From: Candidatus Uhrbacteria bacterium
GTDB lineage: Bacteria > Patescibacteriota > Patescibacteriia > UBA9934 > CAZDDW01
Direction of reading: 5' to 3'
Assembly (NCBI GenBank): GCA_043811105.1
Contig: JBDRNK010000087.1
Coordinates: forward strand, 1 to 43,676
Length of the DNA: 43,676 bases
Program-made: the position numbers and the translations under genes
Notes under the pieces: generated by a model
Databases searched by the model: none
What the model saw: the letters and a program-made list of their open reading frames with translations, nothing else
Told to the model about the DNA's origin: nothing
In this document: piece after piece, positions 4,138-42,630 of the stretch
Layout of the letters: each line of letters begins with the position of its first letter
How positions within the stretch are numbered: the stretch's first letter is position 1

Positions 4138-5009
4138 TTTGCAATTTATAATTAGATTGCAAAAGGACTGGGACGATTATAAGATAAAACAGTTTAACAT
4201 TAATATTAGTAAGTCATTAAAAAATTCGCTGCCTAGCCATAGCGAAAACTATGGTGTGTCACAATATTTGACTATATGCTGGAAACTCTGTGGGTAAAAC
4301 CCTGTAGTATCGAGCGCTACTTAATGGTATAATGACAAGGTGTAATTATTCCTTGTCTATATGTTAGTAAGTAATAATGCGTCTCGCGCAGACAATCAGC
4401 AGGAAAGACTAATGATGATCGGTTGGATAGTCGGTTTTGTAGATGGTGAAGGATGTTTTTCAATTAATTTTGTAAAACAGGCCGATAAAAAGGAAAAAAC
4501 CAGAGTTCGTAAAGGATACAAAATTGGCTTCCAAATTATTCATAGATTCGCGGTAGTGCAAAGTGAAAAGAGTATTGATACTTTAAAGAAATTGCATAAA
4601 TTTTTTGGAGTCGGCAACGTATATATTAATCGTCGCCATGACAATCATAAAGAAAATTTATACAGGTACTCAGTATCTAAAAAGGAAGATTTAATAAGAG
4701 TAATTATTCCTTTTTTCCAAAAGAATATTCTAAAAACCTCAAAGAAAAAAGATTTTTCTTTATTCGTTGAATGTATAAAATTAATAGACAAAGGAAAACA
4801 TTTAACCGGAGAAGGAGCTATAAAAATTGCTCAACTTTGCGAAAAAATGAATCAACAAAAACCGAAAACAGAAATCATTAGAATCCTCAGAAACCAAACG
4901 TCAAACTCCGTCATTCGCCATTTAGCGGATCGGAGAAGATAGAGTTCTATCTGCATAGCGATATGCAGCCACGAAAGTGGGTTTAGTAAATAACTAAATA
5001 AAATGAATT
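4138..5009 (+). mobile_element. group-I-like intron/insertion in 23S domain IV, carrying a homing endonuclease
   Basis: It splits the conserved cgtcctaaggt|agcgaaattcc, which is the I-CeuI recognition sequence region. The 3' boundary base is T rather than the canonical G, so the exact splice site is uncertain. Confidence 0.7.
4361..4942 (+). CDS. LAGLIDADG homing endonuclease (single-motif type)
   Basis: 193-aa ORF inside the 23S insertion, with the motif GWIVGFVDGEGCFSI. Confidence 0.85.
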   Translation: MLVSNNASRADNQQERLMMIGWIVGFVDGEGCFSINFVKQADKKEKTRVRKGYKIGFQIIHRFAVVQSEKSIDTLKKLHKFFGVGNVYINRRHDNHKENLYRYSVSKKEDLIRVIIPFFQKNILKTSKKKDFSLFVECIKLIDKGKHLTGEGAIKIAQLCEKMNQQKPKTEIIRILRNQTSNSVIRHLADRRR

Positions 5010-6088: not shown

Positions 6089-6132
6089 TCGGTCTCCTAT
6101 CCGCCACGGGCGTCGAAAGTTGCGGGAACCTA

Positions 6133-6173
<41 letters not shown>

Positions 6174-10121: not shown

Positions 10122-10883
10122 ATGAATATCAAAGTTATTATATTGGCTGCTGGTAAGGGGAAACGCATGGGAGCCGAAATTCAAAAGGCCATGTTGCCTT
10201 TGGCTGAAAAGCCACTGATTGGGCATTTGCTCGACGCTGTAGATTCTAGTTCGATCGATTCAACATCTATTGTTGTTTATGGATATGGTGGTGAAGATTT
10301 GGTCGAGTATGTGCAAGATCGTGCTGATGTTGCTTTGCAAGAGCACCAGCTTGGAACAGCTCATGCAGTCATGTCGGCTCGTGACCAAGTTGTTGATTCA
10401 GAAGCTGTTCTTGTTTTGTATGGAGACTGTGCCCTGGTTTCTTCAGAAACAATTCAGCGCTTAATCGATCATCATCAACAAAGCCCAGCAGCGATTACTA
10501 TGGCTGTTGGTTGTGTTACTGATTACGAAGGGTGGCGATCTTGTTTCTCACGTTTTGGCCGTATCTTACGTGATCAGTCAGGAAATGTAACTGCTATCCG
10601 TGAAGCCAAGGACTGTACTGGTAAGGAGTTGAAGATTCGTGAGGTCAATCCCGGTTTTTATGTTTTTGATAATAACTGGCTTTGGGATCATATTGATTCA
10701 ATTGGTTCTGATAACGCTCAAGGCGAGATGTATCTGACCGACCTGGTCGAGATCGCCATTGCCAATGACGACAAAGTAAACACCGTAGAAATCCCGATTG
10801 AAGAATGTGTAGGTTGCAATACTCCGGAGGAACTTGTATTCGCTGAGCAAATTTATTCTAAAAAAAGTAGCGGAACCCTTTAG
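10122..10883 (+). CDS. sugar-1-phosphate nucleotidyltransferase (GlmU N-terminal-domain-like)
   Basis: The N-terminus VIILAAGKGKRM matches the LAAGKGTRM signature. The protein has only the nucleotidyltransferase domain length (253 aa). Confidence 0.7.
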   Translation: MNIKVIILAAGKGKRMGAEIQKAMLPLAEKPLIGHLLDAVDSSSIDSTSIVVYGYGGEDLVEYVQDRADVALQEHQLGTAHAVMSARDQVVDSEAVLVLYGDCALVSSETIQRLIDHHQQSPAAITMAVGCVTDYEGWRSCFSRFGRILRDQSGNVTAIREAKDCTGKELKIREVNPGFYVFDNNWLWDHIDSIGSDNAQGEMYLTDLVEIAIANDDKVNTVEIPIEECVGCNTPEELVFAEQIYSKKSSGTL

Positions 10884-10921
10884 GGTTTCATTTGTAGGGA
10901 CCGACAGGCGTAAGCCTGTCA
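10867..10921 (+). repeat. REP-like repeats R2 (gtagcggaaccctttagggtt) and R1 (gtagggaccgacaggcgtaagcctgtca)
   Basis: Both have a GTAG head followed by a palindrome. R2 supplies the last codons and the TAG stop of the upstream gene. R1 recurs at 12214, 13660(-), 24212(-) and 39738(-). Confidence 0.75.
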
Positions 10922-26335: not shown

Positions 26336-29218
26336 ATGTCAGACGGAAGATCTAATTTTCCCAAAATGGAAGAGGAAATACTCAAGTTTTGGGAAGCAGA
26401 AAAGATTTTTGAAAAAACTTTATCTAAGGATTCGCCTCAGGGTGAATTTGTTTTTTATGAAGGGCCACCAACAGCTAACGGTAAGCCAGGAATTCATCAT
26501 GTTGAGGCTCGGGCGTTTAAAGACATTATTCCTCGCTACAAAACTATGTGTGGCTATCACGTCGGACGCAAGGGTGGTTGGGATACTCAAGGGTTGCCGG
26601 TTGAATTGGAAGTGGAAAAGCAGTTAGGTTTGTCTTGTCGGAAAGAGGTTGAGGAGTATGGGATAAAGGAATACAACGAAAAGTGTAAAGAAAGTGTTTG
26701 GAAATATTTAGATCAATGGATTGGTATGACCAAACGAATTGCTTATTGGTTGGATATTGATAATGCATACATTACTTATAAACCAGAATACATTGAGAGT
26801 TTGTGGTGGATTATTAAGCAGGTATGGGAACGTGATCTGTTGTATCAAGATTATAAAGTCTTGCCATACTGTACACGTTGTGGAACTTCTTTGTCTTCGC
26901 ACGAAGTTGCACAAGGATATAAAGAAGTTGAGGATCCTGCTGTCTACATTAAATTCAAAGTAAAGGATCATGCCGACACTTTTTTGGTGGCTTGGACAAC
27001 AACACCTTGGACCTTGATTTCAAATACTGCTTTGGCTGTTGGTCAAGATGTTGATTACGTAAAAGTCAAACAAGGTAATGAATTTTTGTGGCTGGCGCGT
27101 TCGCGAGCTGAAGCAGCTCTTGGTGCTGATTTTGAAATTATTGAAGAAGTGAAAGGGTCTGAATTGTTAGGAGTTGAGTACGAGCCGTTGTTTCCGTATT
27201 GGGAAGAAGCACGACAAGCAGCCGGGATTGAAGGTAAGGCACATTATGTGGTGGCTGCGGATTTTGTTTCTACAGAAGATGGTTCGGGAATCGTTCATAC
27301 AGCCGTGATGTATGGTGCTGAAGACTTTGAACTTGGAAATGAGATCGGCTTGCCGAAATTTCACATGATTGCTCCTGACGGGAAGTTTATTGAAGGTTCA
27401 GGGCCATTTACTGGGGTTTATGTAAAAAAAGCTGATGCTGGTATCACTGAAGACCTTCGAACTCGCGGTCTGTTACTCAAAGAAGAAAAAATTACACACA
27501 CATATCCATTTTGCTGGCGTTGTAAGTCTCCGTTGATTTATTACGCCATGGATTCTTGGTATATTCGCATGTCTTCTTTGCGCGACAAATTATTAACTGA
27601 GAATGACAAGATCCATTGGGAGCCGGATCATATTAAAGACGGCCGATTTGGTGAATGGTTACGAGAGGTTAAGGATTGGGCTTTTTCACGTTCACGTTAC
27701 TGGGGTACACCATTGCCGGTTTGGTGTTGTGAGTGTGGTCACATGGACTGTATCGGATCCTACGAGGAACTCAAGGACAAAGCCAAACAAGATCTTGATT
27801 TGGAAAATTTTGATCCGCATCGACCTTTTGTTGATGACTACACTATTGAATGTCCAAAGTGTCAGAAAGAAATGCATCGAGTCGAAGATGTGTGTGACGT
27901 TTGGTTTGATTCCGGTTGCATGCCTTTTGCCCAATGGCACTATCCATTTGAAAATAAAGAGTTGATTGATTCTGGTCAGCAGTTTCCTGGTGATTATATT
28001 TCAGAAGCGATTGATCAGACTCGTGGATGGTTCTACACTTTGCACGCTGTAGGTATTCTTCTTGATAAGGGCTTGGTTTACAAAAATTGTATTTGTCTTG
28101 GACATTTACTCGATGCTAAGGGCAAGAAGATGTCTAAGTCAATTGGTAATGTGGTTGAACCAATGGAGCAAATTGATAAGTATGGAGCTGATGCTGTGCG
28201 TTGGTGGATGTATACAGTTAATCAGCCGGGTGAATCTAAGAATTATGATGAGCGCGATGTTGATACGATTGTGAAAAAAGTATTTAACATTCTTTGGAAC
28301 GTTAAGACTTTTTATCAGATGTATGAACAGAAGTATGGTGTTTCGGATGGGAATGACACCCGCAAGTGTGTCAACATTCTTGACCAATGGATTTTATCTC
28401 GACTGAATAGCCTTATTGCTGATTCAACCAAATGGTTGGATGGTTACAAAGTAACTGAACCGGCTCGGGCAATTGCTGATTTTGTTACGGACCTATCAAC
28501 CTGGTATGTTCGTCGCAGTCGTGATCGATTTAAGAGTGAGAATGAGCGGGTTCGGACAGAAGCCATGGTTACCTTGCGGCATTGTTTGATTGAAGTAACA
28601 AAATTAATGGCTCCGTTTACTCCGTTTATTTCTGAGGATATTTATCGACAAATCGGTGGAGAAAAACAATCGGTTCATCTTGAAGATTGGCCAGTGGCTG
28701 ATGAAAAGTTGATTAACCAGGATCTGCTTGATCAAATGGATCAAGTGCGTCGAGTGGTTTCTGAAGCTTTAAAACAGCGTGAAGAAAAACAGTTGGCGGT
28801 TAAGCAACCGTTGGCAAAAGCAACTGTTCGTGGCATGAAAGCTCTCGACGATAGTTTACTTGAGTTGATCAAAGACGAAGTTAATATCAAAGAAGTTGTT
28901 TTTGCCACTGCTGGAGATTTTGCTGTTGAACTTGATACAGAGTTGACTCCGGAACTAAAACGCGAAGGCTATGTGCGAGAAATTGTGCGCAAGGTCAATG
29001 GGTTGCGCAAAGAAGCCGGTCTGACTATTGAAGATTCGATTGAGTTGTATGTTGTTAGCGATGCTGAACAGGTTCAGCTGACTTTACAAGAGCACCAAGA
29101 AGCAATCTTGTCCGGCACTTTGGCCAAAGAATTAAAAACAGAAAAAACCAATCTTGAACATTCGACAGATCTGAAATTGGGAGACGAACCTGTTTGGATA
29201 GCTATCAAAAAAATGTAG
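26336..29218 (+). CDS. ileS: isoleucine--tRNA ligase
   Basis: 960 aa. PPTANGKPGIHH (HIGH region), KMSKS, and a CP1 editing-domain-sized insertion. Confidence 0.95.
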   Translation: MSDGRSNFPKMEEEILKFWEAEKIFEKTLSKDSPQGEFVFYEGPPTANGKPGIHHVEARAFKDIIPRYKTMCGYHVGRKGGWDTQGLPVELEVEKQLGLSCRKEVEEYGIKEYNEKCKESVWKYLDQWIGMTKRIAYWLDIDNAYITYKPEYIESLWWIIKQVWERDLLYQDYKVLPYCTRCGTSLSSHEVAQGYKEVEDPAVYIKFKVKDHADTFLVAWTTTPWTLISNTALAVGQDVDYVKVKQGNEFLWLARSRAEAALGADFEIIEEVKGSELLGVEYEPLFPYWEEARQAAGIEGKAHYVVAADFVSTEDGSGIVHTAVMYGAEDFELGNEIGLPKFHMIAPDGKFIEGSGPFTGVYVKKADAGITEDLRTRGLLLKEEKITHTYPFCWRCKSPLIYYAMDSWYIRMSSLRDKLLTENDKIHWEPDHIKDGRFGEWLREVKDWAFSRSRYWGTPLPVWCCECGHMDCIGSYEELKDKAKQDLDLENFDPHRPFVDDYTIECPKCQKEMHRVEDVCDVWFDSGCMPFAQWHYPFENKELIDSGQQFPGDYISEAIDQTRGWFYTLHAVGILLDKGLVYKNCICLGHLLDAKGKKMSKSIGNVVEPMEQIDKYGADAVRWWMYTVNQPGESKNYDERDVDTIVKKVFNILWNVKTFYQMYEQKYGVSDGNDTRKCVNILDQWILSRLNSLIADSTKWLDGYKVTEPARAIADFVTDLSTWYVRRSRDRFKSENERVRTEAMVTLRHCLIEVTKLMAPFTPFISEDIYRQIGGEKQSVHLEDWPVADEKLINQDLLDQMDQVRRVVSEALKQREEKQLAVKQPLAKATVRGMKALDDSLLELIKDEVNIKEVVFATAGDFAVELDTELTPELKREGYVREIVRKVNGLRKEAGLTIEDSIELYVVSDAEQVQLTLQEHQEAILSGTLAKELKTEKTNLEHSTDLKLGDEPVWIAIKKM

Positions 29219-29271
29219 CGGAACCCTTTAGGGTTCCATTTCAAAATGGAAGGCTAAAGCCTTCCTCTACA
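29215..29271 (+). repeat. REP-like repeat R2 (double hairpin)
   Basis: gtagcggaaccctttagggttccat ttc aaaatggaaggctaaagccttcc tctaca. Its TAG is the ileS stop codon. Confidence 0.75.
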
Positions 29272-33290: not shown

Positions 33291-33310
33291 TTCATTCAAC
33301 TCAACAAAGT

Positions 33311-33438
33311 CCAGCAGTCCTTGCTGGCACGTGCCTCGAACACTGTTCGAGGCCTCCACCCTGTACCAGACGTCTCTAACGAGCCGTCGGTACAGGGCCC
33401 TACCAGAGTTTCTGAAGTAATTCAGAAACTCTGGTGGG
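33311..33438 (+). repeat. island junction J1: hairpins Ha, Hb, Hc and a short inverted-core element
   Basis: Ha 33311-33327, Hb 33333-33353, Hc 33359-33397 (ccctgTAcc/ggTAcaggg variant). ccctaccagagtttctgaa-gtaa-ttcagaaactctggtggg at 33398-33438. Confidence 0.75.
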
Positions 33439-33479
33439 AGTAGTTTCCAGATTTTTAAAATGTCCAACAAGGAGGATTC

Positions 33480-34364: not shown

Positions 34365-34376
34365 TCCTTTCAAAGC

Positions 34377-34580
34377 CCAGCAGTCCTTGCTGGCACGTGC
34401 CTCGAACCCTGTTCGAGGCTCCACCAGAGTTATTCAAACAAGTATCATGTCTCAAGTAACCCACCTTCGCCAAGGCTTCGGTGGGCAGGCAAGTATCAAG
34501 TTAGGAAGATATCGCGATATTTTCCATCCTTGATCCTTGAACCTTGTTACTTGAAACTTTCCTTGGATACCCCTGGTGGG
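34377..34580 (+). repeat. island junction J2: Ha, Hb, empty Hc site, inverted-core element invaded by host repeats
   Basis: Ha 34377-34393, Hb 34399-34419. ctccacc|agag has no Hc. ccaccagag (34421) pairs with ccctggtggg (34571). The interior 34440-34557 consists of host-type caagt-arm and ccaccttcgccaaggcttcggtgggcagg repeats. Confidence 0.7.
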
Positions 34581-34602
34581 ATACAATCTAAACGGAGGAA
34601 AG

Positions 34603-34749
34603 ATGAGCAAGATCCTGTCTGTCTGTGTCGAAATCGTGATCTACTGCATGGCATTTGCCATGTATCAGATCTACGAGCGCCGCTACTCGTGCGGCAACCT
34701 GAACAACACCTTGGGCAAGGTCGCCAGCTCCACAGGCTACCACCCGTAG
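34603..34749 (+). CDS. 48-aa small hydrophobic protein
   Basis: ggagga SD 5 nt upstream. MSKILSVCVEIVIYCMAFAMYQIYERRYSCGNLNNTLGKVASSTGYHP. Below the ORF-track cutoff. Confidence 0.5.
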   Translation: MSKILSVCVEIVIYCMAFAMYQIYERRYSCGNLNNTLGKVASSTGYHP

Positions 34750-34767
34750 GAATTGAAAGGAGCCGAC

Positions 34768-35037
34768 GTGAGTATTCGTCAACAGTTGGTTTGCTTCGGG
34801 ATCGTGGCAAAAGTCATGTGCACGATCGTTGGTCTTTGCATCTTGGGTACAGTGCTGCTCGTAGCCAACGTGGCTGCCGTTGCTATCTGGATCGGATGTC
34901 TGCTGGATTGGGACTTTCCGATCTTGTACGCCTTTGTCCCAGCTTTGGTAATGTTTCTGGACGTCTGTGTCAGTCTACTGATTTCCAGGCTCTGGCCAGG
35001 GTTCAGTGACTGGCTTTGCCTCGGGTTCAGGAAGTAG
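34768..35037 (+). CDS. small membrane protein (two or three TM)
   Basis: aaggag SD 5 nt before GTG 34768. Hydrophobic throughout. Confidence 0.55.
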   Translation: MSIRQQLVCFGIVAKVMCTIVGLCILGTVLLVANVAAVAIWIGCLLDWDFPILYAFVPALVMFLDVCVSLLISRLWPGFSDWLCLGFRK

Positions 35038-35214
35038 AAGAAGTATATTGCGTGGGCTGGTTCTTACCAGCTCTAACTGCGAACGCCGCGTATGTTCGCA
35101 GACCCTCTCTAGTTTAGAAATAGCGATCCTAATGAAATTCGAATGGCATTCGAATGATCCGAATATTTGTAAATTAAAGAGGGGGAAACAATTTTCAAAC
35201 AACAAGGAGTGGTC

Positions 35215-35298
35215 ATGACCATCGATTTGATCAGAATCTACAACCGCGTCTATTACCGGATTTTCCGGATTCGACGCTGGTTTCGATCCGCGAAGTAA
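35215..35298 (+). CDS. 27-aa highly basic peptide (speculative)
   Basis: aaggag SD 4 nt before the ATG. MTIDLIRIYNRVYYRIFRIRRWFRSAK. Confidence 0.25.
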   Translation: MTIDLIRIYNRVYYRIFRIRRWFRSAK

Positions 35299-35336
35299 AC
35301 CAAGCCGTTAACGCAGAAGTAGAGGAGGAAGTTGAA

Positions 35337-35699
35337 ATGAGCACGAAAATGCTGATTGCTGCCGTGGTGGTGGTGTTGAACTTCTGGCTGGTGTTCGGCT
35401 GTGTCATGCCAGTGCCGGAGATGGTCTCTGACATCTGTGCCATGATGCTTCGAGCCGAAGCCTGGACGATCGGGCTGTGCCTGGTTTTCAGCGTCTTGTT
35501 CTTCTACGATCAGATGGTTCTGGTCGTGGAGCAACACAAGCTTCGCTGTGGTCAGGTCTGTCGGATCTGGTCCAGAGTGACGGTGCCAGACCCCAAGGAG
35601 CTGGGTGTTCGCGAAATGGTTTGCGAGGCCTGGATCATCAGCATGGAAAAGGTTGTACACGCACAACAGCGCGTGCACCGTTTCCTACAAAACGTGTAG
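35337..35699 (+). CDS. hypothetical membrane protein
   Basis: gaggagga SD. 120 aa with N-terminal TM helices. Confidence 0.55.
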   Translation: MSTKMLIAAVVVVLNFWLVFGCVMPVPEMVSDICAMMLRAEAWTIGLCLVFSVLFFYDQMVLVVEQHKLRCGQVCRIWSRVTVPDPKELGVREMVCEAWIISMEKVVHAQQRVHRFLQNV

Positions 35700-35743
35700 C
35701 TTACACGTACGACACCGGAGTCGCACTCGCGATTCCAAATTTA

Positions 35744-35890
35744 CCCTGAACCAGACATCTCTAACGAGCCGTCGGTTCAGGGCCCCACCTGAGATGTTAA
35801 GAGATTTTTCTAACGGGGTTTATCCCCGGTCTGACTGTCAGACGCCAGATGAACTGGCTAAGAAAAATTTCTTAAATCCTCTGGTAGGGG
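35744..35890 (+). repeat. island junction J3: Hc plus element II (copy 1)
   Basis: Hc 35744-35782. Element II 35783-35890: closing stem ttaagagatttttct/agaaaaatttcttaa around three small hairpins (gggg..cccc, tctga..tcaga, gccag..ctggc). Confidence 0.75.
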
Positions 35891-35898
35891 ATCAAAAA

Positions 35899-35925
35899 AC
35901 CGCCATGTAGGCGGTGGTTCGAATC
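35899..35925. terminator. hairpin between convergent genes, overlapping a T-arm-like 13-mer
   Basis: aaaaaaccgcc-atgt-aggcggt. ggtggttcgaatc (35913-35925) is identical to 31854-31866. Confidence 0.45.
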
Positions 35926-35936
35926 TTTACAAATAT

Positions 35937-36287
35937 TTATCGTAACTCTAGCTGGACATGTTGAGCTATCTGTTGTAACTGTGATTCGAGTCGTTCATAT
36001 TTAGATTGCAAAGCAATAAGTTCAGTCTCGAGTTTATTGTGTAAACTAATGAAACCGTCGACTTGGGTAATGATTTCAGATTTTGCTTCATTTACTACTT
36101 CCTTAATTTCAGTACCCAGCTCACCTTTTAAGTTAGAGATTTCAAAAGAGAGATCATCCTTCGAGGTCATGTGAGATTCTAACTCATGCAGATCATCCTT
36201 TGAAGCCGCATTATCTTTAATAAATTCAACAGTATCAAGTACTTGTTGTAGAGCGTTATCTTGATCCATACAAATGTAATTTAACAT
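35937..36287 (-). CDS. coiled-coil protein, AT-rich (paralog of 39116-39613)
   Basis: Start chosen at MLNYICMDQ by homology with the paralog. Shared C-terminus LETEL.ALQSKYERLESQLQQIAQH.QLELR. The line 36001-36060 hand-counts to 35% GC. Confidence 0.6.
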   Translation of the reverse strand: MLNYICMDQDNALQQVLDTVEFIKDNAASKDDLHELESHMTSKDDLSFEISNLKGELGTEIKEVVNEAKSEIITQVDGFISLHNKLETELIALQSKYERLESQLQQIAQHVQLELR

Positions 36288-36310
36288 ATTGTCGAGTAGA
36301 TGACAATGTT

Positions 36311-36409
36311 CTACCAGAGATGAATATTTCTTACCCAACTTGTTGGGGTTTTAAATCAAGACGGGAATAAATTCCCTGAGAAGTATTAAGAAATATCGTT
36401 TCTGGTGGG
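36311..36409 (+). repeat. island element I, copy 1 (structured leader candidate)
   Basis: ctaccagag...tctggtggg bracket. Inner hairpins cccaa-cttg-ttggg and gggaat-aa-attccc. 33 nt upstream of ATG 36443. Confidence 0.7.
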
Positions 36410-36442
36410 AGAAAAATTACATTCAATAAGAAAGGAAACGAG

Positions 36443-36700
36443 ATGACTGAGAAACAGCAGGAAAAGATGCTGACCGAGCTGAACTGGCTCAAGCGCTGGT
36501 TGGTTCGCCAGCCGCGCTGGTTGCAGATGGGCTTCTTGCTCATCTCAGGCCTTTTGCTCGGAGCTGACCTGATTCTGGTCGACCCGATTCCGCTGATCGA
36601 TGAAGCCTTGCTCATCTGGTCCACTTGGACCGGGTTCAAGGTGGCGGTCAACGATGGTCCACGGTATCGGCGTTTGGAAGCGCCGCAGGAGGAGTCATGA
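36443..36700 (+). CDS. small membrane protein, DUF1232/YkvA-like (tentative); paralog of 39855-40115
   Basis: 85 aa. ADLILVDPIPLIDEALLIWS resembles the DUF1232 D.IPD.IP..G..DD motif. Confidence 0.6.
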   Translation: MTEKQQEKMLTELNWLKRWLVRQPRWLQMGFLLISGLLLGADLILVDPIPLIDEALLIWSTWTGFKVAVNDGPRYRRLEAPQEES

Positions 36701-36939
36701 AGTATTGGCTCTTCGAACAGATTCCGCGGGTCTGGGTAACGGTCGTTCTGATCGCTGTCTGGTCAATTCTGGCCACGGCCACGCTAGCTGCCTGGCCCTT
36801 ACCCACCAGTTATGATGTCTGGGTCGGGCGTGGTCTTGGCTGTATACTCCTGACCTCCATTCCGGCCTTGTTGACCGAGCCGATTATTTTCGCACTCTGG
36901 TGGCCAGGCAAGCCCTTCGAGCTTCGGCCACGAAGCTGA
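36697..36939 (+). CDS. small membrane protein
   Basis: ATGA overlap with the upstream stop. aggaggag SD. 80 aa. The C-terminal KPFELRPRS is encoded by the shared repeat. Confidence 0.55.
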   Translation: MKYWLFEQIPRVWVTVVLIAVWSILATATLAAWPLPTSYDVWVGRGLGCILLTSIPALLTEPIIFALWWPGKPFELRPRS

Positions 36940-37119
36940 ACCTTCCCCACTCGCCCGGAACCATTCACGGTTCCGGGCCCTACCCTGAACCAGACGTCTC
37001 TAGCGAGTCGTCGGTTCAGGGCCCTACCAGAGATGAATATTTCTTACCCAACTTGTTGGGGTCAAGACGGGAACAAGTTCCCTGAGAAATATTATTTCTG
37101 GTGGGGGACGAAGTTTTTT
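36911..37119 (+). repeat. island junction J5: He, Hf, Hc, element I (copy 2)
   Basis: He gcttcg-gcca-cgaagc 36921-36936. Hf 36954-36977. Hc 36983-37021. Element I 37024-37105. 36983-37119 is identical to 37903-38039. Confidence 0.8.
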
Positions 37120-37185
37120 ACAACACGGCTTTACAGAGCCAAGGTCCGTCGAACGGGCCGAGCAATAAAGAAAGATAGGAAAGAC

Positions 37186-37491
37186 ATGCCATATTTGCAA
37201 TTGGTACATACCACGGGTAGCGACTTCATCATGGGATGGCACGGTTTTGGTGACACATCAATGCCTGACGGTGTGAATTTGCACTGTCTGTGCGATACGG
37301 GCACCACAATCGTATTTCCAAGTCTGGTCAGTGTGGCCGGTCTTGCCCTGACCGTGAGCAACATCAAAGCTTTGCTCAAGGCTTGGTTGAACGAGCAGGA
37401 AAGCCTGCCGGTTCATGTCTGCCCGAAGTGTGGTATCGATGGTAGTTCTGACAAGGATAAGGTCTTGGCTTGGTTACAAGCCCTTCGGTAA
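37186..37491 (+). CDS. hypothetical protein
   Basis: 101 aa from ATG 37186. Contains CPKC. The upstream part of the track ORF is element I sequence. Confidence 0.45.
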   Translation: MPYLQLVHTTGSDFIMGWHGFGDTSMPDGVNLHCLCDTGTTIVFPSLVSVAGLALTVSNIKALLKAWLNEQESLPVHVCPKCGIDGSSDKDKVLAWLQALR

Positions 37492-37593
37492 TTTAACAGT
37501 CCACCAGGGAAGATGGGCTTTCGCCCAATCCTGGCGTCCTTAGTCGGACGTAGAAGATGGACCCTGTCCACTAGGGCAGGAATTCGGAAAGAT

Positions 37594-37893
37594 ATGAAGA
37601 GATTTCTGAAGACGGTATCGTCCTACACGTTCACGGCCGCAGTCTACACGGTTCTGGCAGTACTGGTCCTGGCTATCGTGATTCCGATCGTGACCTTTGT
37701 TGGTGGACATGTCTGCCTGGTCGTTTGCGCCCTGGTCTGGGAGTTTTTTCCAGCCTGGGATCTGGGAGTGATCGGTGTGATCGGCGCTGCCACCTTCATC
37801 TTCGATGCAGTATTTCTACCATTCCTGATTCCGATCTTTCTGATCGTAGCAACCTGGCTGCTCACCCCGAGCAAGAAGCGGCAATGTTGCTAA
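37594..37893 (+). CDS. small polytopic membrane protein
   Basis: 99 aa from ATG 37594 (alternative start 37513). Hydrophobic throughout and ends in CC. Confidence 0.5.
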   Translation: MKRFLKTVSSYTFTAAVYTVLAVLVLAIVIPIVTFVGGHVCLVVCALVWEFFPAWDLGVIGVIGAATFIFDAVFLPFLIPIFLIVATWLLTPSKKRQCC

Positions 37894-37902
37894 ACTCTTT
37901 CG

Positions 37903-38039
37903 CCCTGAACCAGACGTCTCTAGCGAGTCGTCGGTTCAGGGCCCTACCAGAGATGAATATTTCTTACCCAACTTGTTGGGGTCAAGACGGGAACAAGTTC
38001 CCTGAGAAATATTATTTCTGGTGGGGGACGAAGTTTTTT
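37903..38039 (+). repeat. island junction J6: Hc plus element I (copy 3)
   Basis: 137-bp perfect copy of 36983-37119. Confidence 0.85.
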
Positions 38040-38064
38040 CAAACAACAAATGAAGGAGAGAACG

Positions 38065-38469
38065 ATGTTGAATACAGAAAGAACCTTGCGCGATTTCGTC
38101 TTTCTGGTGTACCAGTTGGCAGTGAACGATAACGATCAGTTGCCGCCAACACCGTGGACCGACATCAAGATCACGCCGGCCAAGTACGCTGTTCTGCTGC
38201 GTCAGGGCTGGCAACGGGCTCAGAAGGGTCGAATGCAGATGTGTCTGCGCTTTGATCTTCCGGATGGGTCTGTGGCCTATCTCGGTAACGGTGACCCTCA
38301 GGGTCATAACAACGATATCTGGCACGGTCGGATCGAGGGTCCGATCGCCGAAAGCCTCGGCTGCCGCTGGATCGAGTTTGGTGTCATGGCCGATGCCGAA
38401 GTCGACACCAAGGGTCTGTTGGCTGCAACCAAACGTAGCCGGCCCTTCGAGCTTCGGCCACGAAGCTGA
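38065..38469 (+). CDS. hypothetical protein
   Basis: gaaggag SD 6 nt before ATG 38065. 134 aa. The C-terminal RPFELRPRS is encoded by the shared repeat. Confidence 0.55.
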   Translation: MLNTERTLRDFVFLVYQLAVNDNDQLPPTPWTDIKITPAKYAVLLRQGWQRAQKGRMQMCLRFDLPDGSVAYLGNGDPQGHNNDIWHGRIEGPIAESLGCRWIEFGVMADAEVDTKGLLAATKRSRPFELRPRS

Positions 38470-38615
38470 ACCTTCCCCACTCGCCCGGAACCATTCACGG
38501 TTCCGGGCCCTACCAGAGTTGTTCAATAATTTTTCTAACGGATCTCTGATCCGGTTCTGAATTCGAACGCCATCAGAGATGGCTAAGAAGAACTTCTGAA
38601 CATATCTGGTAGGGG
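38441..38615 (+). repeat. island junction J7: He, Hf, empty Hc site, element II variant
   Basis: 38442-38514 is identical to 36912-36984. gggccctacc|agag has no Hc. Element 38510-38615 is bracketed by ctaccagag / atctggtagggg. Confidence 0.8.
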
Positions 38616-38640
38616 ACAATTACAAACAGAGGAGGTACAA

Positions 38641-38883
38641 ATGTACCGCGTGATCATTGCGATTTTTTGGGCCATGGTGGCCTTTGGAATGTTCTGGGGT
38701 TTTGTTTTCGGCCACCTGCACGTGGTCGGATTCATCGAGTGTCTGATTCGTCAGGACTTCAGTTCGGATCCAGGTTACTTGATGAGCATCGTGGCGATCT
38801 TGACCGTACTGCTCGACATCTTTGCATTCCTCGCTTTCATACTTGGAATGCACTGCCGCATCTTTCTGTGGTGCCGCAGTTGA
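38641..38883 (+). CDS. small membrane protein
   Basis: gaggagg SD. 80 aa with two hydrophobic helices. Confidence 0.55.
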   Translation: MYRVIIAIFWAMVAFGMFWGFVFGHLHVVGFIECLIRQDFSSDPGYLMSIVAILTVLLDIFAFLAFILGMHCRIFLWCRS

Positions 38884-38890
38884 AATATTT

Positions 38891-39071
38891 CACTCGCCCG
38901 GAACCATTCACGGTTCCGGGCCCCACCCTGAACCAGACGTCTCTAACGAGTCGTCGGTTCAGGGCCCCACCTGAGATGTTAAGAGATTTTTCTAACGGGG
39001 TTTATCCCCGGTTTGTAAGTCAGACGCCAGATAAACTGGCTAAGAAAAACAGCTTAACACATCAGGTTGGG
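38891..39071 (+). repeat. island junction J8: Hf, Hc, element II (copy 2)
   Basis: Hf 38897-38920, Hc 38926-38964, element II 38965-39071 (closely similar to 35783-35890 over its first ~50 nt). Confidence 0.8.
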
Positions 39072-39115
39072 TCAATCAAAAAACCGCTTTGTCAGCAGTT
39101 TTGTTCTTAAAAGGA

Positions 39116-39613
39116 TTATCGCAGTTCCAATTGAATATGTTGAGCTATCTGTTGTAATTGCGATTCAAGACGTTCGTACTTGGATTGAAGAGCCACAAGT
39201 TCAGTTTCAAGTTTGTTGTGTAGATTGATAAAGCCATCGATTTGAGTGACTATTTCAGATTTTGCACCAGAAATTATTTGTTCAACATCGGCTTTGACTA
39301 CTGCGTTATCTTTGACAAATTCAACTGTTTCTTGCACCCCAGCCATATCCTCTCTGAGAGAACTAACGTCTGTTTTTACTCCAGACATATCTTCTTTGAG
39401 AGAACCAACGTCTGTTTTAAGAGAACCAACATCTGTTTTTACCCCAGCCATATCCTCTTTAAGGGAGCTGACATCTGTTTTAAGAGAACCAACATCTGTT
39501 CGAACTGAACCAACCGCCACTTCCAATCCTTTGATTGCTTCCCGGTTTGAGGTGGTGGTATCTAGAATTTTTTCAAGTAGTGATTGTTGATCCATACAAA
39601 AGTAATTTAACAT
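39116..39613 (-). CDS. coiled-coil protein with an internal 21-nt tandem repeat expansion (paralog of 35937-36287)
   Basis: 165 aa. Heptad-like repeats DVGSLKT/DVSSLKE/DMAGVKT. Same N- and C-termini as the paralog. Confidence 0.65.
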   Translation of the reverse strand: MLNYFCMDQQSLLEKILDTTTSNREAIKGLEVAVGSVRTDVGSLKTDVSSLKEDMAGVKTDVGSLKTDVGSLKEDMSGVKTDVSSLREDMAGVQETVEFVKDNAVVKADVEQIISGAKSEIVTQIDGFINLHNKLETELVALQSKYERLESQLQQIAQHIQLELR

Positions 39614-39636
39614 ATTGTCGAGTAGATGACAATGTT

Positions 39637-39818
39637 CTACCAGAGATTAGTATTTCTTACCCAATTTACCTGGCCGCCGAAGCTTTAGCGAAGGCGGGTT
39701 GGGGTTGTGATGGGAACGACAAACTTTAGTTTGTCAAATGACAGACTAACGTCTGTCAGTCCCTACAAGACGGGAATAAATTCCCTGAGAAGTATTAAGA
39801 AATATAATTTCTGGTGGG
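39637..39818 (+). repeat. island element I, copy 4, interrupted by host REP-like repeats
   Basis: Same ends as copy 1. About 100 nt are inserted (39668-39767), containing cctggccgccgaagctttagcgaaggcgggttgggg and tgacagactaacgtctgtcagtccctac. Confidence 0.75.
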
Positions 39819-39854
39819 AGAAAAGGTTTTACAATCAATACGAAAGGGAACAAA

Positions 39855-40115
39855 ATGACTGAGAAACAGCAAGAGCAAATGCTGACTGAGCTGAACTGGC
39901 TCAAGCGCTGGTTGATTCGTCAGCCTCGCTGGTTGCAGGTGAGCTTCTTGTTCATCTCAGCCGCGCTGTTCGGTGTCGACATGATCGCGCTCGACCCGCT
40001 GCCCTTCATCGACGAAGCCATTCTGGCCTGGTCCACCTGGACCGGGTTCAAGGTGGCGGTCAACGACGGTCCGCGGTATCGGCGCTTGGATGCACCCGAG
40101 TCCAAATCTACCTAA
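39855..40115 (+). CDS. small membrane protein, DUF1232/YkvA-like (tentative)
   Basis: 86 aa. Closely similar to the 36443-36700 product (MTEKQQE.MLTELNWLKRWL.RQPRWLQ...). Confidence 0.6.
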   Translation: MTEKQQEQMLTELNWLKRWLIRQPRWLQVSFLFISAALFGVDMIALDPLPFIDEAILAWSTWTGFKVAVNDGPRYRRLDAPESKST

Positions 40116-40141
40116 ACCTCTCAAACATCTGAGGAGAAAAA

Positions 40142-40441
40142 ATGCAGACGGTTCTGGTAATATTGATGTTGATGGCTATGATTCTGGGCGGAGTGGCTAC
40201 TGCCCTTCGTATCTGGACTAAGAGCCAATGGACTGGTCGTCTGGCACTAGCCAGCCTGGTCAGTTTGATTCTGGGAACGGCCTGGGCCATTGGTTCTGGC
40301 CACTGGGTAATGGTGATCATGGAGCCGGTGATGTGGTTCCTGACCCTGGCCAGTGTCTGGCTGTTCAGCTACAGCCTTTGGCATCTGAACAATCCGGTCA
40401 AGCTGGCCTATGCGCGGTTGCGGTTGCGACTGCACAACTGA
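40142..40441 (+). CDS. small polytopic membrane protein
   Basis: gaggag SD. 99 aa with three hydrophobic helices. Confidence 0.55.
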   Translation: MQTVLVILMLMAMILGGVATALRIWTKSQWTGRLALASLVSLILGTAWAIGSGHWVMVIMEPVMWFLTLASVWLFSYSLWHLNNPVKLAYARLRLRLHN

Positions 40442-40449
40442 ATATCTTG

Positions 40450-40608
40450 CCCCGGAACCTATCGTGGTTCCGGGGCCCTACCCTGAACCAGACGTCTCTA
40501 ACGAGCCGTCGGTTCCGGGCCCCACTTAAGCACAGCAGTTTGATGAATATCGAAACTCTCTCTCAATATTCATTAAACCAGCAATGCTGTGCTTAGGTGG
40601 GGTTTTTT
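40450..40608 (+). repeat. island junction J10 / right end: Hf variant, hybrid Hc, terminal hairpin plus T-run
   Basis: ccccggaacc-tatcgt-ggttccgggg 40450-40475. Hc with an Hf-type 3' arm at 40481-40519. cccacttaagcacagca...tgctgtgcttaggtgggg followed by TTTTTT (40603-40608). Confidence 0.7.
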
Positions 40609-40643
40609 GTTTTATCTGACTTTATGTTAAACTGGTTTCAGTT

Positions 40644-42560
40644 ATGTGTGGAATCGTTGGCTATATAGGTAAAAAACAGGCCCTGCCGATCTTAATTGAT
40701 GGGTTAAAGCGTTTGGAATACCGTGGTTATGATTCGGCTGGGGTGGCGTTGTTGGGTGAGGGGGGTTGTCAGATTATTAAGAGTCCGGGGAAGATAGTAG
40801 GATTAGAAGAGAAAGTCTCAAGTTTCAAGTCTCAAGTCTCAAGTGCTGGAATCGCTCATACTCGCTGGGCGACTCATGGGCCTCCGACTGAGGCCAATGC
40901 TCATCCGCATACTGATTGCTCTGGCAAAATTGCCTTAGTTCATAACGGAATTGTTGAGAACTATCAGGAATTGAAACAAGAATTACAGGAGAAGGGACAT
41001 CAGTTTCGTTCAGAAACGGATACTGAAGTGTTGGTGCATTTGATTGAAGATTGTTTAAATAATGTAGCGGAAGGCTTTAGCCTTCCATGTCAGCAAAATG
41101 GAACCCTCCCACCTTCGCCAAGGCTTCGGCGGGCAGGAAAGGGTTCCTCTACATTAGAAATGGCAACCAGAAAGGCATTAGAACAAGTGCGCGGCACTTA
41201 CGGTATTGCTGTAGTTTCATCTGATCATCCAGATCAAATCGTGATTGCTCGCATGGGCAGCCCGATTGTTATTGGTGTGGGCACTGATGATTTTTTTGTT
41301 GCTTCAGATGCTTCAGCTTTGTTAAGTCATACCCGCAATGTAATTTATCTTGACGATGGCGAGATGTGTGTTTTACGACCGGACGGTTATTCGATTAAGA
41401 CTTTGGGTAATCGATCAGTGGCTAAAGAACCAGAAGTTATTGAGTGGTCAGCTGAAGATGTTAAAAAAGGTGGACATCCGCATTTCATGAAAAAGGAAAT
41501 GATGGAACAGCCAAAAGTTTTGGTTGATTCTATTCGCGGTCGTTTAAAACCAAAAGATGGAAAAGCCGTGCTTGGTGGTTTAAGCGATGTTGCCGATCGT
41601 CTGCGTCAAATTGATCGACTAATTATTGTTGCCTGCGGTAGTGCCTACTATTCCGGCCTGGTCGGCGAGTATATGTTGGAAGAATATGCTGGTATTCCAG
41701 TGGAAGTAGATCTGGCTTCAGAGTTTCGTTATCGCAAACCGATTATTACAGATCGCACAGCCGTGCTTGCAGTTAGTCAATCCGGAGAAACCGCAGACAC
41801 ACTAGCAGCGATCCGTGAGGCAAAAGAAAAAGGTGCTTTAACCTTGGGAATCGTTAATACGGTTGGATCGACCATAGCTCGGGAAACCGATGCCGGTATT
41901 TACAATCATGCCGGCCCGGAAATTGGAGTGGCTTCAACTAAGGCTTTTTTATCGCAAGCAACAGTCTTTGCTTTATTAACCATGTTTCTTGGTCGACAGC
42001 GATCAATGTCAATGGTCATGGGTAAGCGTATAGCTGATGAGATTCAGATGCTTCCAGACAAGTTGCAATCAATCATTAACCAGTTTGATCAGATCTCGCT
42101 TCTGGCTCAGAAATACAAAGACATGCAAAATTGTTTGTACTTGGGACGAAAATACTGTAGTCCAATTGCTTACGAAGGAGCTTTGAAACTTAAAGAGATT
42201 TCTTATATTCACGCTGAAGGTTATGCAGCTGGAGAAATGAAACACGGTCCGATCGCTTTGATTGATTCAAACTTTGTTTCCGTTGTGCTATGTCCAAAAG
42301 ACTCGGTTTATGAAAAAACTATATCTAACATCGAAGAACTTAAGGCTCGTGGTGGTTCGATCATCGCCGTGACAACTGAAGGCAACGATTCGATTAAACA
42401 AGTCGCAGATGATATAATCTATATACCAAAAACTTTAGAAATGTTAACTCCAATTTTGGCTGTGGTTCCGTTGCAAATTTTTGCTTACGCAATTGCTACA
42501 GCTCGTGGTTATGATCCGGACATGCCCAGGAATCTGGCTAAAGCCGTGACCGTGGAGTAG
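40644..42560 (+). CDS. glmS: glutamine--fructose-6-phosphate aminotransferase
   Basis: MCGIVGYIG N-terminal nucleophile. GIAHTRWATHG. Two SIS domains. C-terminal ...AKAVTVE. Confidence 0.95.
   Translation: MCGIVGYIGKKQALPILIDGLKRLEYRGYDSAGVALLGEGGCQIIKSPGKIVGLEEKVSSFKSQVSSAGIAHTRWATHGPPTEANAHPHTDCSGKIALVHNGIVENYQELKQELQEKGHQFRSETDTEVLVHLIEDCLNNVAEGFSLPCQQNGTLPPSPRLRRAGKGSSTLEMATRKALEQVRGTYGIAVVSSDHPDQIVIARMGSPIVIGVGTDDFFVASDASALLSHTRNVIYLDDGEMCVLRPDGYSIKTLGNRSVAKEPEVIEWSAEDVKKGGHPHFMKKEMMEQPKVLVDSIRGRLKPKDGKAVLGGLSDVADRLRQIDRLIIVACGSAYYSGLVGEYMLEEYAGIPVEVDLASEFRYRKPIITDRTAVLAVSQSGETADTLAAIREAKEKGALTLGIVNTVGSTIARETDAGIYNHAGPEIGVASTKAFLSQATVFALLTMFLGRQRSMSMVMGKRIADEIQMLPDKLQSIINQFDQISLLAQKYKDMQNCLYLGRKYCSPIAYEGALKLKEISYIHAEGYAAGEMKHGPIALIDSNFVSVVLCPKDSVYEKTISNIEELKARGGSIIAVTTEGNDSIKQVADDIIYIPKTLEMLTPILAVVPLQIFAYAIATARGYDPDMPRNLAKAVTVE
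41064..41153 (+). repeat. 90-nt nested REP-like insertion (R3 inside R2), in frame within glmS
   Basis: gtagcggaaggctttagccttccat gtcagc aaaatggaaccct[cccaccttcgccaaggcttcggcgggcagg]aaagggttcc tctaca. Encodes VAEGFSLPCQQNGTLPPSPRLRRAGKGSST. Confidence 0.75.
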
Positions 42561-42630
42561 AGAGTAGAAGGTAGAAGGTAGAAAGGAATAAATTTAACTC
42601 CTTTCTACTCTCTACTTTCTACCTTCTACT
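42555..42630 (+). repeat. REP-like long hairpin R4 filling the glmS to HD-gene spacer
   Basis: gagtagagagtagaaggtagaaggtagaaagga...tcctttctactctctactttctaccttctac. Its first TAG is the glmS stop, and the ATG of the next gene follows at 42631. Confidence 0.8.

Follow-up and report, generated by a model that had tools for sequence, protein, structure and literature searches.

The 43.7-kb stretch of DNA analysed here (the window) carries glmS, the gene for glutamine--fructose-6-phosphate aminotransferase. A 90-nt palindromic segment lies within the reading frame of this gene (Table 1). The segment has the layout GTAGCGGAAGGCTTTAGCCTTCC-ATGTCAGCAAAAT-GGAACCCT[CCCACCTTCGCCAAGGCTTCGGCGGGCAGG]AAAGGGTTCCTCTAC-A, in which the brackets enclose the element R3. 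GTAG-tagged REP sequences are defined as units of 20-40 nt with a 5' GTAG (GTRG) tetranucleotide directly before a short imperfect palindrome. GTAGCGGAAGGCTTTAGCCTTCC has this anatomy: it is 23 nt long, and its hairpin consists of a stem of 7 bp closed by a 4-nt loop. An inverted pair of such units around a short spacer, the arrangement of a REPIN, which can fold into one long hairpin, is present in the glmS segment and once more in the window at 29215-29270. In the glmS segment, two GTAG-tagged REP hairpins thus stand head to head as a REPIN-like doublet.

Table 1. Features of the glmS locus and further copies of the repeats in the window
Feature	Position	Strand	Evidence
glmS (glutamine--fructose-6-phosphate aminotransferase), host gene of the insert	40644..42560	+	ORF, 638 aa
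Composite insert, 90 nt (REP doublet with nested R3)	41064..41153	+	sequence; doublet alignment; six-frame translation; absence in orthologues
REP unit 1, GTAG tag and hairpin GGAAGGC-TTTA-GCCTTCC	41064..41086	+	exact pattern match
Spacer ATGTCAGCAAAAT separating both REP units	41087..41099	+	identical in the doublets of L012, L046 and L093
REP unit 2, inverted, GTAGAGGAACCCTTT...AGGGTTCC, loop split by R3	41100..41152	-	alignment; fold
R3, 30-nt element CCCACCTTCGCCAAGGCTTCGGCGGGCAGG	41108..41137	+	gap of 30 nt in all other doublets
Intact REP doublet without R3, fills the spacer between ileS and the next gene	29215..29270	.	unit pattern
Single, slightly degenerate REP unit	10867..10889	+	unit pattern
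Another copy of R3, within a CCCAA/TTGGG hairpin's loop	39669..39698	-	inverted match

Alignment with the doublets at 29.2 kb and in the loci L012, L046 and L080 resolved the segment into an intact 60-nt doublet plus exactly 30 nt between GGAACCCT and AAAGGGTTCC. R3 is located between CT and AAAG of the second REP hairpin's loop (CTAAAG). A 121-nt sequence spanning the insert folds with -44.1 kcal/mol (z = -3.9), and the outer stem of REP unit 2 surrounds R3 in this fold.

In the frame of glmS, the segment reads as VAEGFSLPCQQNGTLPPSPRLRRAGKGSST (30 residues). Predicted peptides across it would be ...NNVAEGFSLPCQQNGTLPPSPR and GSSTLEMATR; the junction without insert would be CLNN-LEMATR. R3 codes for PPSPRLRRAG, ten extra residues. 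The 60-nt doublet is free of stops in one of six frames, R3 in all six and the composite in two. glmS reads the doublet in its single stop-free frame, in which neither TAG triplet of the forward REP unit (G-TAG, TT-TAG) is read as a codon. With a length that is a multiple of three, an insertion in this orientation and frame leaves an important gene intact, as is seen here. The preliminary description had proposed a 90-nt REP-like element nested in frame inside glmS, with R3 in the second R2 hairpin. The GTAG tag, the stem-loop and the two inverted units make this label accurate, and the alignment to intact doublets supports the nesting. Its added peptide agrees with the translation, and its claim that an out-of-frame TAG leaves the ORF open was borne out in the six-frame translation.

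GlmS and its variable loop

The window protein matches E. coli GlmS structures at E 5e-152, and its homologues have the Pfam domains GATase_6/7 and SIS. The AlphaFold model predicts, insert aside, a fold with the structural matches 1jxa and 2j6h. The 1,917 nt of glmS contain no frameshift and no stop. Residues that are invariant across 18 aligned GlmS are, by construction, all present in the window protein, among them catalytic Cys2 and the motifs HTRWATHG, HNGI.EN, SQSGETADT and LAK.VTVE. Purifying selection on glmS is strong: dN/dS against relatives is 0.03-0.09 (0.03-0.085) and similar in relatives without the insert, a ratio that reflects divergence mostly older than the insertion and does not prove current function. 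The Rfam search revealed no glmS ribozyme upstream of or within the gene, and no other family there at gathering score. The only weak match, to a microRNA model at 40520-40602, was dismissed as chance. The 23S rRNA of the window is about 1.5 kb longer than the bacterial LSU model and includes a group I intron.

The 30 residues are missing in all 120 best GlmS hits, including the closest orthologues P0001-P0004 (87-90% identity, 613-623 aa). The glmS genes of the loci L001-L005 lack the insert, and the DNA at the site of P0001-P0004 is unrelated. Orthologous glmS sites are thus polymorphic for presence and absence of the element, as expected for mobile DNA. By this sequence comparison, the 90 nt are an insertion. 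The locus L093 of a related MAG has no glmS. Database searches yielded no candidates for the insert peptide with short flanks and no record in an exact look-up of the window GlmS protein. Among JGI metagenome contigs, both glmS/insert junctions, with or without R3, had no match.

In the alignment with E. coli GlmS, query residues 1-135 correspond to chain residues 1-133 and 168-638 to 139-609. At the site, E. coli has 5 residues and the window protein 32. The spacing between TDTEV and GTYG is 24-31 aa in 107 of the 120 orthologues; it is 54 aa in the window protein and 24 aa after subtraction of the insert. As this is the short end of the range, a small deletion may have occurred along with the insertion. 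The same loop is expanded in other proteins: P0074 has 63 aa, P0006/7 have 41-42 aa and P0113/72/75 have 39-41 aa. The glmS of L005 has a palindromic insert at this loop. A repeat family was not supported for it, the sequence having no further copy within its 13-kb locus.

In the AlphaFold model, residues 142-168 form no helix or strand, and their pLDDT stays under 50. The bordering helices, 126-140 and 171-180, are predicted with a pLDDT of about 90. The low pLDDT suggests that the insert is disordered. Structural modelling had been proposed in the preliminary description; in the model the insert is a coil of low confidence, with a confidently predicted helix on either side. The GlmS alignment also confirmed the site given there, between ...HLIEDCLNN and LEMATRK..., where E. 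coli has a short segment. A homologous 30-aa segment in orthologues without the repeat, named there as evidence against the claim, was not found.

Distribution of the REP family and of R3

The 23-nt unit pattern had three exact and four near matches in the window and none in 100 shuffles. GTAG-plus-hairpin sites numbered 16, compared to 3.5 +/- 1.7 in block shuffles. The inventory of the 43.7 kb comprises three exact units, one degenerate unit and one split by R3. Two of the other sites contribute to gene ends. The TAG stop of ileS (26336..29218) comes from the GTAG of the adjacent doublet, and the last five codons plus the TAG stop of a nucleotidyl-transferase ORF (10122..10883) derive from the degenerate unit. 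The hairpin hosting the second R3 copy has a paralogous repeat near 36325-36345, which is empty of R3. The glmS copy is distinct from the other copies in the window: its spacer is unlike that of the 29.2-kb doublet, and its R3 is the unique variant CCCACC.

The same 23-mer is present in many genomes, and the REP family in many phyla. Head-to-head doublets account for most of the 135 REP copies from other genomes. Where copies other than that in glmS were aligned, their flanks are mutually unrelated. The related MAG CAYZPO01 has REP copies on at least seven contigs. In several phyla the family is linked to genes for IS200-like Y1 (RAYT) transposases: L036, L096 and L109 encode Y1_Tnp ORFs (E 1e-11 to 1e-14) with REP-family units on both sides. 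Further RAYT-type Y1_Tnp genes were found in L035, L105 and L116, and the six are mutually 42-56% identical. None of the 30 window ORFs is a RAYT gene, and a tblastn search that covered the window and the loci of relatives also yielded none there. A genome typically has one RAYT copy (PMC5581495), and the window spans only 43.7 kb. A literature search with the REP and R3 sequence strings gave no match.

Sixteen REP sites had long open runs on both sides, and five of them are continuous in the open frame. In the same frame as in glmS, the doublet reads V-A/E-E-G-F-S-L-P... within genes for RecG (L046), an Eco57I-type methylase (L112), an Lhr helicase (L007) and, in L026, a large protein; these include genes from other phyla. 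Nine of the remaining 11 sites were inspected and read as gene boundaries or as open runs that are spurious and due to a high GC content. The TAG of the REP serves as stop codon in five of the nine, as for ileS in the window. Among the five continuous and nine inspected sites, no gene was split by a stop-containing REP frame.

The core of R3 was found with sharp borders in at least 120 metagenome contigs, and the borders are sharp in 114 differing sequence contexts. R3 is 30-31 nt long, and carrier contigs cover all GC contents. Host hairpins include this REP, in whose loop R3 occurs in several phyla, and the CCCAA/TTGGG hairpin of the window. R3 is also often found in or next to heptamer tandem-repeat arrays and beside tRNA genes, and a further copy is located in L004. 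It is inside ORF-like DNA about as often as random positions are. R3 has no recurrent neighbour gene. Clustering of ORFs less than 3 kb away recovered syntenic neighbours of tRNA clusters only and no candidate transposase. The nearest known analogue, compared by description only, are the SDR repeats of Nostoc punctiforme, likewise tiny, sharp-bordered and nested. These were reportedly described by Elhai and co-workers in 2008 as gene-less sequences of 21-27 nt with sharp borders, nested in repeats and hairpins. R3 differs in length and sequence and is spread over many contigs rather than one cyanobacterial clade. It is conceivable, though doubtful, that R3, (C)CCGCCTTCGCCAAGGCTTCGGCGGGCAGG(C), belongs to a class of pan-bacterial mobile elements of 'nano' size that has not been described before.

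Probable origin and fate of the insert

The tag, the 7-bp stem, the 4-nt loop and the head-to-head order of 23-nt units around a short spacer agree with GTAG REPs and REPINs (Nunvar 2010, PMC2817692; Bertels & Rainey 2011, PMC3116915; Di Nocera 2013, PMC3733652). RAYT (Y1_Tnp) genes flanked by units are a further common trait. GTAG REPs often provide TAG stops to upstream genes (PMC3733652), as does the present family. Intragenic GTAG REPs are mostly dimers encoding 20-30 aa, often in DNA-repair genes (Di Nocera 2013, PMC3733652); the intragenic doublets resemble them, with RecG and Lhr as DNA-repair hosts. Differences concern host, spread and architecture. Patescibacteria (CPR), the host here, are not in the list of GTAG REP phyla of the 2013 survey. 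REPIN-RAYT systems are described as mostly vertically inherited and lineage-specific. The 23-mer, in contrast, is nearly constant in many phyla, an unexpected finding under vertical inheritance of REP/RAYT systems. Unlike described REPINs, the glmS doublet has an unrelated 30-nt element nested in a REP loop, and no RAYT was seen in the 43.7-kb window. In-frame intragenic REP dimers have been described before; what is new is their occurrence in a CPR host, the nesting of R3 and the spread across phyla.

RPE insertions in Rickettsia are said to occupy surface-exposed protein positions. Like the glmS insert, RPEs are palindromic selfish DNA in frame within conserved genes, and their host proteins are likely functional (Ogata et al. 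2000, Science 290:347, as presented in PMC10969869 and PMC3733652). According to citing papers, RPEs are families specific to Rickettsia, RPE-1 has about 150 bp, and the short intragenic RPE-4 and RPE-6 belong to a CGTC-tagged class. The insert acts in the manner of an RPE but was not assigned to the RPEs, from which it is set apart by tag (GTAG, not CGTC) and host (CPR). The MITEs ERIC, BOX and Correia/NEMIS form in-frame fusions (review PMC10969869). Shared characteristics are a short, non-autonomous element, terminal inverted symmetry and occasional translation in a host ORF. In contrast to MITEs, the doublet is much shorter (60 nt), consists of two tagged hairpins and has no resemblance to IS ends. 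The assignment to MITEs was also rejected for the missing target-site duplication, as the sequences on either side, TAAT...ATTA, form an inverted rather than a direct repeat. With AT as duplicated target, the empty site would hold an in-frame TAG.

These observations point to a mobile REP doublet with R3 in glmS that is translated and tolerated as an extra loop, a reading to which we assign a probability of about 0.77. A non-autonomous palindromic element would have inserted at codons of a surface loop in the glutaminase domain. REPIN doublets travel as hairpins of single-stranded DNA with the help of a REP-associated tyrosine (Y1/HUH) transposase, and such RAYT mobilisation may have taken place in this organism. 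Translation of the insert would yield a 30-residue, probably disordered, extra loop, which the enzyme would tolerate with its activity retained. R3, as a separate element within the second REP hairpin, would lengthen the peptide by its ten residues; its entry may have preceded or followed the arrival of the doublet in glmS. Most likely, the insert is carried along as a passenger, with a neutral or slightly harmful effect, and is not adaptive. The preliminary description had left a choice between a tolerated loop and removal of the element at the RNA or protein level. The open frame, the length-variable coil loop and purifying selection favour the former, and no feature came to light in support of the latter.

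Co-option of the insert is improbable. The mRNA hairpin might regulate glmS by pausing, as an RNase III/RNase E site or by stabilisation, or the basic, proline-rich loop might be a new interaction or regulatory site. The unusual stability of the fold, the lack of a glmS ribozyme or other Rfam family and the repeated expansion of this loop in related lineages are in line with such a role. The insert is, however, near-identical to members of a selfish repeat family that lie between genes, and its absence from all close relatives marks it as young and not conserved. The same doublet in unrelated genes (recG, methylase) argues for passive tolerance. A terminator-like tail is absent, and a terminator was rejected for the missing T-tail. 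It is less probable still that this glmS is an inactivated or redundant copy, a young, undecayed pseudogene next to another glmS or an import of amino sugars. Essentiality of glmS is an assumption in CPR bacteria, which are episymbionts with reduced metabolism, and decay might not show yet after a recent insertion. The uninterrupted gene speaks against a pseudogene, as do the invariant residues and Cys2, though these are present by construction, and the low dN/dS, though mostly from divergence before the insertion. An insertion in the single open frame and a second, frame-preserving insertion are the expectation under selection for an intact ORF.

An assembly artefact, in which a repeat mis-join put the 90 nt into glmS, is very improbable. 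As glmS continues in the same frame on both sides, a complete element could only have arisen from chimeric joins at two exact points separated by 90 nt. The genome has further copies of the element, an assembled metagenome is the probable source, and the JGI contigs provided no independent contig with the same junctions; yet the glmS copy differs from the other window copies in spacer and R3 variant, and similar in-frame insertions are present in other genes of independent assemblies. Least probable of all is a removal of the 90 nt or 30 aa after transcription or translation. The strong hairpin recalls T4 gene 60 and the mitochondrial 'byp' elements, and the 23S rRNA in the same window contains a group I intron. 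The Rfam search that detects this intron matched no family on the insert, neither at gathering score nor at E <= 1, and 90 nt are below the size of group I/II introns, which exceed 200 nt and have a catalytic core that covariance models recognise. Inteins contain splicing blocks and measure some 130 aa or more; the insert has 30 aa, starts with Val instead of the required Cys or Ser and is followed by Leu instead of Cys, Ser or Thr (V...T|L). Translational bypass elements such as T4 gene 60 and the mitochondrial byps have a landing codon that matches the take-off codon, and the take-off site is directly followed by a rare codon or a stop. The border codons of the insert (AAT AAT | GTA ... ACA | TTA) are unmatched, no stop follows the take-off position, and bypass is unnecessary for an open insert. 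Excision before translation would free the reading frame of any constraint, yet all five intragenic copies are in the single open frame, and none of the inspected sites showed a split gene.

Translation and tolerance of the mobile doublet would have implications beyond this gene. Even very small CPR genomes hold layered selfish palindromic DNA. In annotation, odd inserts of 20-30 residues in MAG proteins (e.g., with V-A-E-G-F-S-L-P) can be repeat-derived and are not necessarily errors. The cross-phylum REP/RAYT family and R3, maybe a new kind of ultra-small mobile DNA, are leads for further work. If R3 does represent such a class, together with the cross-phylum REP/RAYT family, layered tiny DNA parasites would rewrite protein surface loops in CPR genomes and beyond. 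Selfish palindromes can extend surface loops of central enzymes without destroying the enzymes, a direct path to new peptide segments.

Anatomy of the insert in glmS

The 90-nt insert within glmS of the Candidatus Uhrbacteria contig is a composite of two repeat elements. A REP unit (a 23-nt hairpin with GTAG tag) is followed by a spacer and an inverted partner unit, and the loop of the partner is occupied by a separate 30-nt element, R3. This nested structure was proposed in the preliminary description and was borne out by an alignment with intact doublets, that is, 60-nt pairs of head-to-head units, at 29.2 kb of the window and in five other loci (L012, L046, L080, L052 and L020). The glmS copy had one difference to these doublets, a 30-nt block between CT and AAAG in the second loop. 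Its spacer was identical to the spacers of L012 and L046. The insert region folds with −44.1 kcal/mol (z = −3.9), and the REP unit pattern had 3–4 matches in the window and 0 in shuffles.

Only one of the six frames of the doublet is free of stop codons, reading VAEGFSLPCQQNGTLKGSAT. R3 has no stop in any of its six frames, and the composite of both is open in two of six. The ORF and the six-frame translation agreed with the earlier reading of peptide and frame, with the TAGs out of frame; the observation on the insert is confirmed.

Coordinates of the features in the window and in compared loci (L)
Feature	Position	Strand	Description
glmS	40644..42560	+	ORF, 638 aa; E. coli GlmS structures match at E 5e-152
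Composite insert	41064-41153		four parts: unit, spacer, inverted partner unit, R3
First REP unit of insert			23 nt; GTAGCGGAAGGCTTTAGCCTTCC
Spacer of insert			13 nt; ATGTCAGCAAAAT
Inverted partner unit of insert			GGAACCCT...AAAGGGTTCCTCTAC
R3 in insert	41108-41137		30 extra nt within the loop of the partner; CCCACCTTCGCCAAGGCTTCGGCGGGCAGG
R3 copies	window 41108-41137, 39669-39698; L004:535-564, 977-1006; L125-L244		
Repeats at the GlmS loop in close relatives	L001:6400-6440, L003:1560-1600, L004:5610-5650, L005:1922-1974		
REP unit loci of many phyla, with RAYT examples	L006-L124, e.g. L036:4677-5268, L096:3392-4156, L109:631-1813		
LAGLIDADG homing-endonuclease ORF	4361..4942		in 23S rRNA gene
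Group I intron	5697-6016		in 23S rRNA
5S rRNA	6508-6615		after 23S rRNA gene

Repeats also occur elsewhere in glmS. At window 40813-40844, the heptamer AAGTCTC is repeated 4.6 times in tandem and encodes ...SSFKSQVSS. Orthologues have different peptides at this second variable spot, and KVEGRKGKV of the orthologue P0005 could derive from the coding of a GTAGAAG heptamer. Palindromic arrays of GTAGAAG-type heptamers with hairpin arms of 31–37 nt are located directly after gene ends at 42556-42630 and 31433-31528. In the former array, the first GTAG heptamer provides glmS with its TAG stop.

The GlmS loop with the insert

Comparison with orthologues shows that the 90 nt are an insertion. The 30 residues have no equivalent in the four closest orthologues (87–90% identical, 613–623 aa), and the DNA of these genes at the insert site is unrelated to the REP element. 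The motifs TDTEV and GTYG are separated by 24–31 aa in 107 of the 120 best GlmS matches and by 54 aa in the window GlmS, or 24 after subtraction of the insert. The place of the insert has 32 residues versus 5 in E. coli GlmS.

A surface loop had been expected. An AlphaFold2 model based on an 18-sequence alignment (mean pLDDT 75.8) predicted a coil of low confidence (residues 142–168, pLDDT < 50) between two confident helices (126–140 and 171–180, pLDDT ~90). Elsewhere, the model aligns structurally with E. coli GlmS and human GFAT1. The loop is naturally permissive, and unrelated expansions are present there in other lineages: 63 aa in the orthologue P0074, 41–42 aa coded by a palindrome in P0006/7, and STRGG repeats in P0113/72/75. 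In close relatives, the exact insert loop has heptamer tandem repeats (ATCGCGG, GGATCGC and GCCGCGT), and L005 has a different palindrome there, made of two hairpins and with its ends inverted. This site is a hot spot of coding sequence from repeats.

Invariant columns of the 18-sequence alignment cover the catalytic Cys2, HTRWATHG, HNGI.EN and SQSGETADT; the window GlmS is part of this alignment and necessarily carries them. The dN/dS of glmS against relatives was 0.03–0.085, equal to values among insert-free relatives. A redundant or dying gene copy is, beside this conservation, quite unlikely.

REP copies in other genes and the fate of the insert

The open frame of the doublet is also used inside several other genes. 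The identical 60-nt doublet is in frame in a RecG helicase domain (L046:2980-3038, ...LLSRG-VEEGFSLPCQQNGTLKGSAT-LQKSEV), and genes from other phyla carry related units in the same frame: L112 (an Eco57I-type methylase), L007 (an Lhr helicase) and L026 (a large unnamed protein). Among the intragenic GTAG REPs already known, dimers or groups coding for 20–30 aa make up over half, and many reside in genes for the replication and repair of DNA; flexible linkers or loops were suggested as their seat (PMC3733652). Together with the classic parallel of the Rickettsia RPEs, this makes the glmS insert one more case of an event already described.

The MAG with L046, CAYZPO01 (loci L012, L046, L052, L080, L087, L089 and L093), is labelled ‘uncultured Gammaproteobacteria’ and shares the identical doublet; one of its genes has 70% DNA identity to the gene downstream of glmS. 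This MAG is probably a taxonomically mislabelled relative of the CPR organism of the window.

Sixteen REP sites are flanked by long open runs. At five of them the reading continues through the element in its open frame, and nine of the other 11 were inspected. Five of these nine are gene boundaries at which the upstream gene ends at the TAG of the REP, and three are in high-GC DNA with apparently spurious open runs. The site in L055 is a gene boundary whose downstream gene opens with a clear N-terminus. Among the inspected sites, no gene was split by a REP in a stop-containing frame, as predicted by translation through the element and not by its removal from the mRNA. REPs at gene ends in the window provide stop codons, a behaviour also noted by Di Nocera et al. 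(PMC3733652): a doublet (29215-29270) occupies precisely the spacer that separates ileS from the following gene and provides the TAG of ileS, and a nucleotidyl-transferase gene owes its final five codons and its stop to a half unit (10867-10889).

The REP doublet would have been copied into glmS, presumably by a REP-associated Y1 transposase (RAYT) acting on single-stranded hairpin DNA. It is present in the sole tolerated orientation and frame, and selection may be the cause. The second hairpin contains R3 within its CTAAAG loop, which would add 10 residues. The 30 residues are likely translated as a flexible surface loop of a working GlmS, as suggested by frame logic, model, loop variability and conservation. 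Of the two options of the preliminary description, the tolerated loop is thus supported; removal from the RNA or the protein is highly improbable, with no split gene among the inspected sites. Co-option as a regulatory hairpin or for a new loop function is unlikely, although the least so among the alternatives, and an assembly artefact is very unlikely. No Rfam family was found on the insert. It had no intein feature, no bypass signal and no terminator.

REP and R3 in the window and, with RAYT, across phyla

The best GlmS matches are metagenome proteins, and the named ones belong to Patescibacteria/CPR (Uhrbacteria, Moranbacteria and Liptonbacteria). The 23S rRNA gene (window 1950-6366) has 4.4 kb versus a 2.9-kb model. 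The window also carries one tRNA, pentose-phosphate genes, ileS and an L,D-transpeptidase. The 191-aa ORF at 12642-13214, which weakly resembles a partial RVT_1 (reverse-transcriptase) domain, may be a retroelement remnant. At window 33300-40640, small repeats nested in one another form a dense mosaic with small ORFs. Some of these ORFs are duplicated (36417-36684 and 39829-40096, 82% identical), and a coiled-coil ORF consists of 21-nt repeats (39116..39613). Several further GTAG-hairpin classes occur in the mosaic (GTAGGGCCCGGAACC..., GTAGGGACTGACAG...) and the window (also GTAGGGACCGACAG...). All classes together have 16 sites in the window versus 3.5 ± 1.7 in shuffles.

A short stem-loop behind a 5′ GTAG tag defines REPs, and their inverted pairs are known as REPINs or head-to-head dimers (PMC2817692, PMC3116915, PMC3733652). 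The unit in glmS shares tag, stem-loop and inverted pairing. The pattern GTAGNGGAASSSTTTAGSSTTCC, run against a single genome for each GTDB species, matched at least 119 stretches versus ~2 expected by chance by our own estimate, in Desulfobacterales, Zixibacteria, Chloroflexota, Scalindua, Brocadiaceae, Ignavibacteria, Patescibacteria, Dadabacteria, Bipolaricaulota and others. Most of the matches listed are doublets, and their partner hairpins differ through changes that compensate each other (GGAGGTC/GACCTCC and GGAAACC/GGTTTCC among others). At six loci among these, an IS200-like Y1 transposase adjoins the units (Y1_Tnp Pfam, E 1e-11 to 1e-14). The six proteins share 42–56% identity and form a distinct clade. 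REP units on both sides of the gene in L036, L096 and L109 represent the classical ‘REPtron’ arrangement. ORFs and tblastn revealed no RAYT gene within the 43.7-kb window, which is uninformative, since RAYTs are typically single-copy per genome according to PMC5581495. The searched literature contained neither REPs or REPINs in Patescibacteria, nor this unit as a sequence string, an intragenic REP that has itself taken up another small element in frame, or a nearly identical REP unit across many phyla.

R3 (CCCGCCTTCGCCAAGGCTTCGGCGGGCAGG, 30–31 nt) was detected by its core CCTTYGCYAARGCTTCGGCGGSCAGG in at least 120 JGI metagenome contigs of all base compositions. Its conservation begins and ends abruptly, delimiting a 30–31-nt unit across 114 distinct contexts. 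R3 is present in the loop of the REP family from other phyla (L056, L091 and L096, with a related insert in L033). It also occurs between tRNA genes and, in L004 as in many metagenome loci, within heptamer repeat arrays. The second window copy occupies the loop of a CCCAA/TTGGG hairpin; the paralogue of this hairpin is empty. R3 is found in ORF-like DNA at about the rate of random positions, with 38% versus 45% having at least 100 open codons on either side. No gene recurred beside R3 among the loci examined, and the sequence had no match in Rfam or, as a string, in the searched literature. Small dispersed repeats in Nostoc, reportedly described by Elhai in 2008, are the nearest known analogue; the likeness is a lead, not a conclusion.

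The occurrence of the 23-nt GTAG unit in many phyla, with a distinct RAYT clade beside it at six loci, would be unexpected if REPIN-RAYT systems are inherited vertically. R3 and this cross-phylum REP/RAYT family are the more novel side lead and deserve a separate study.
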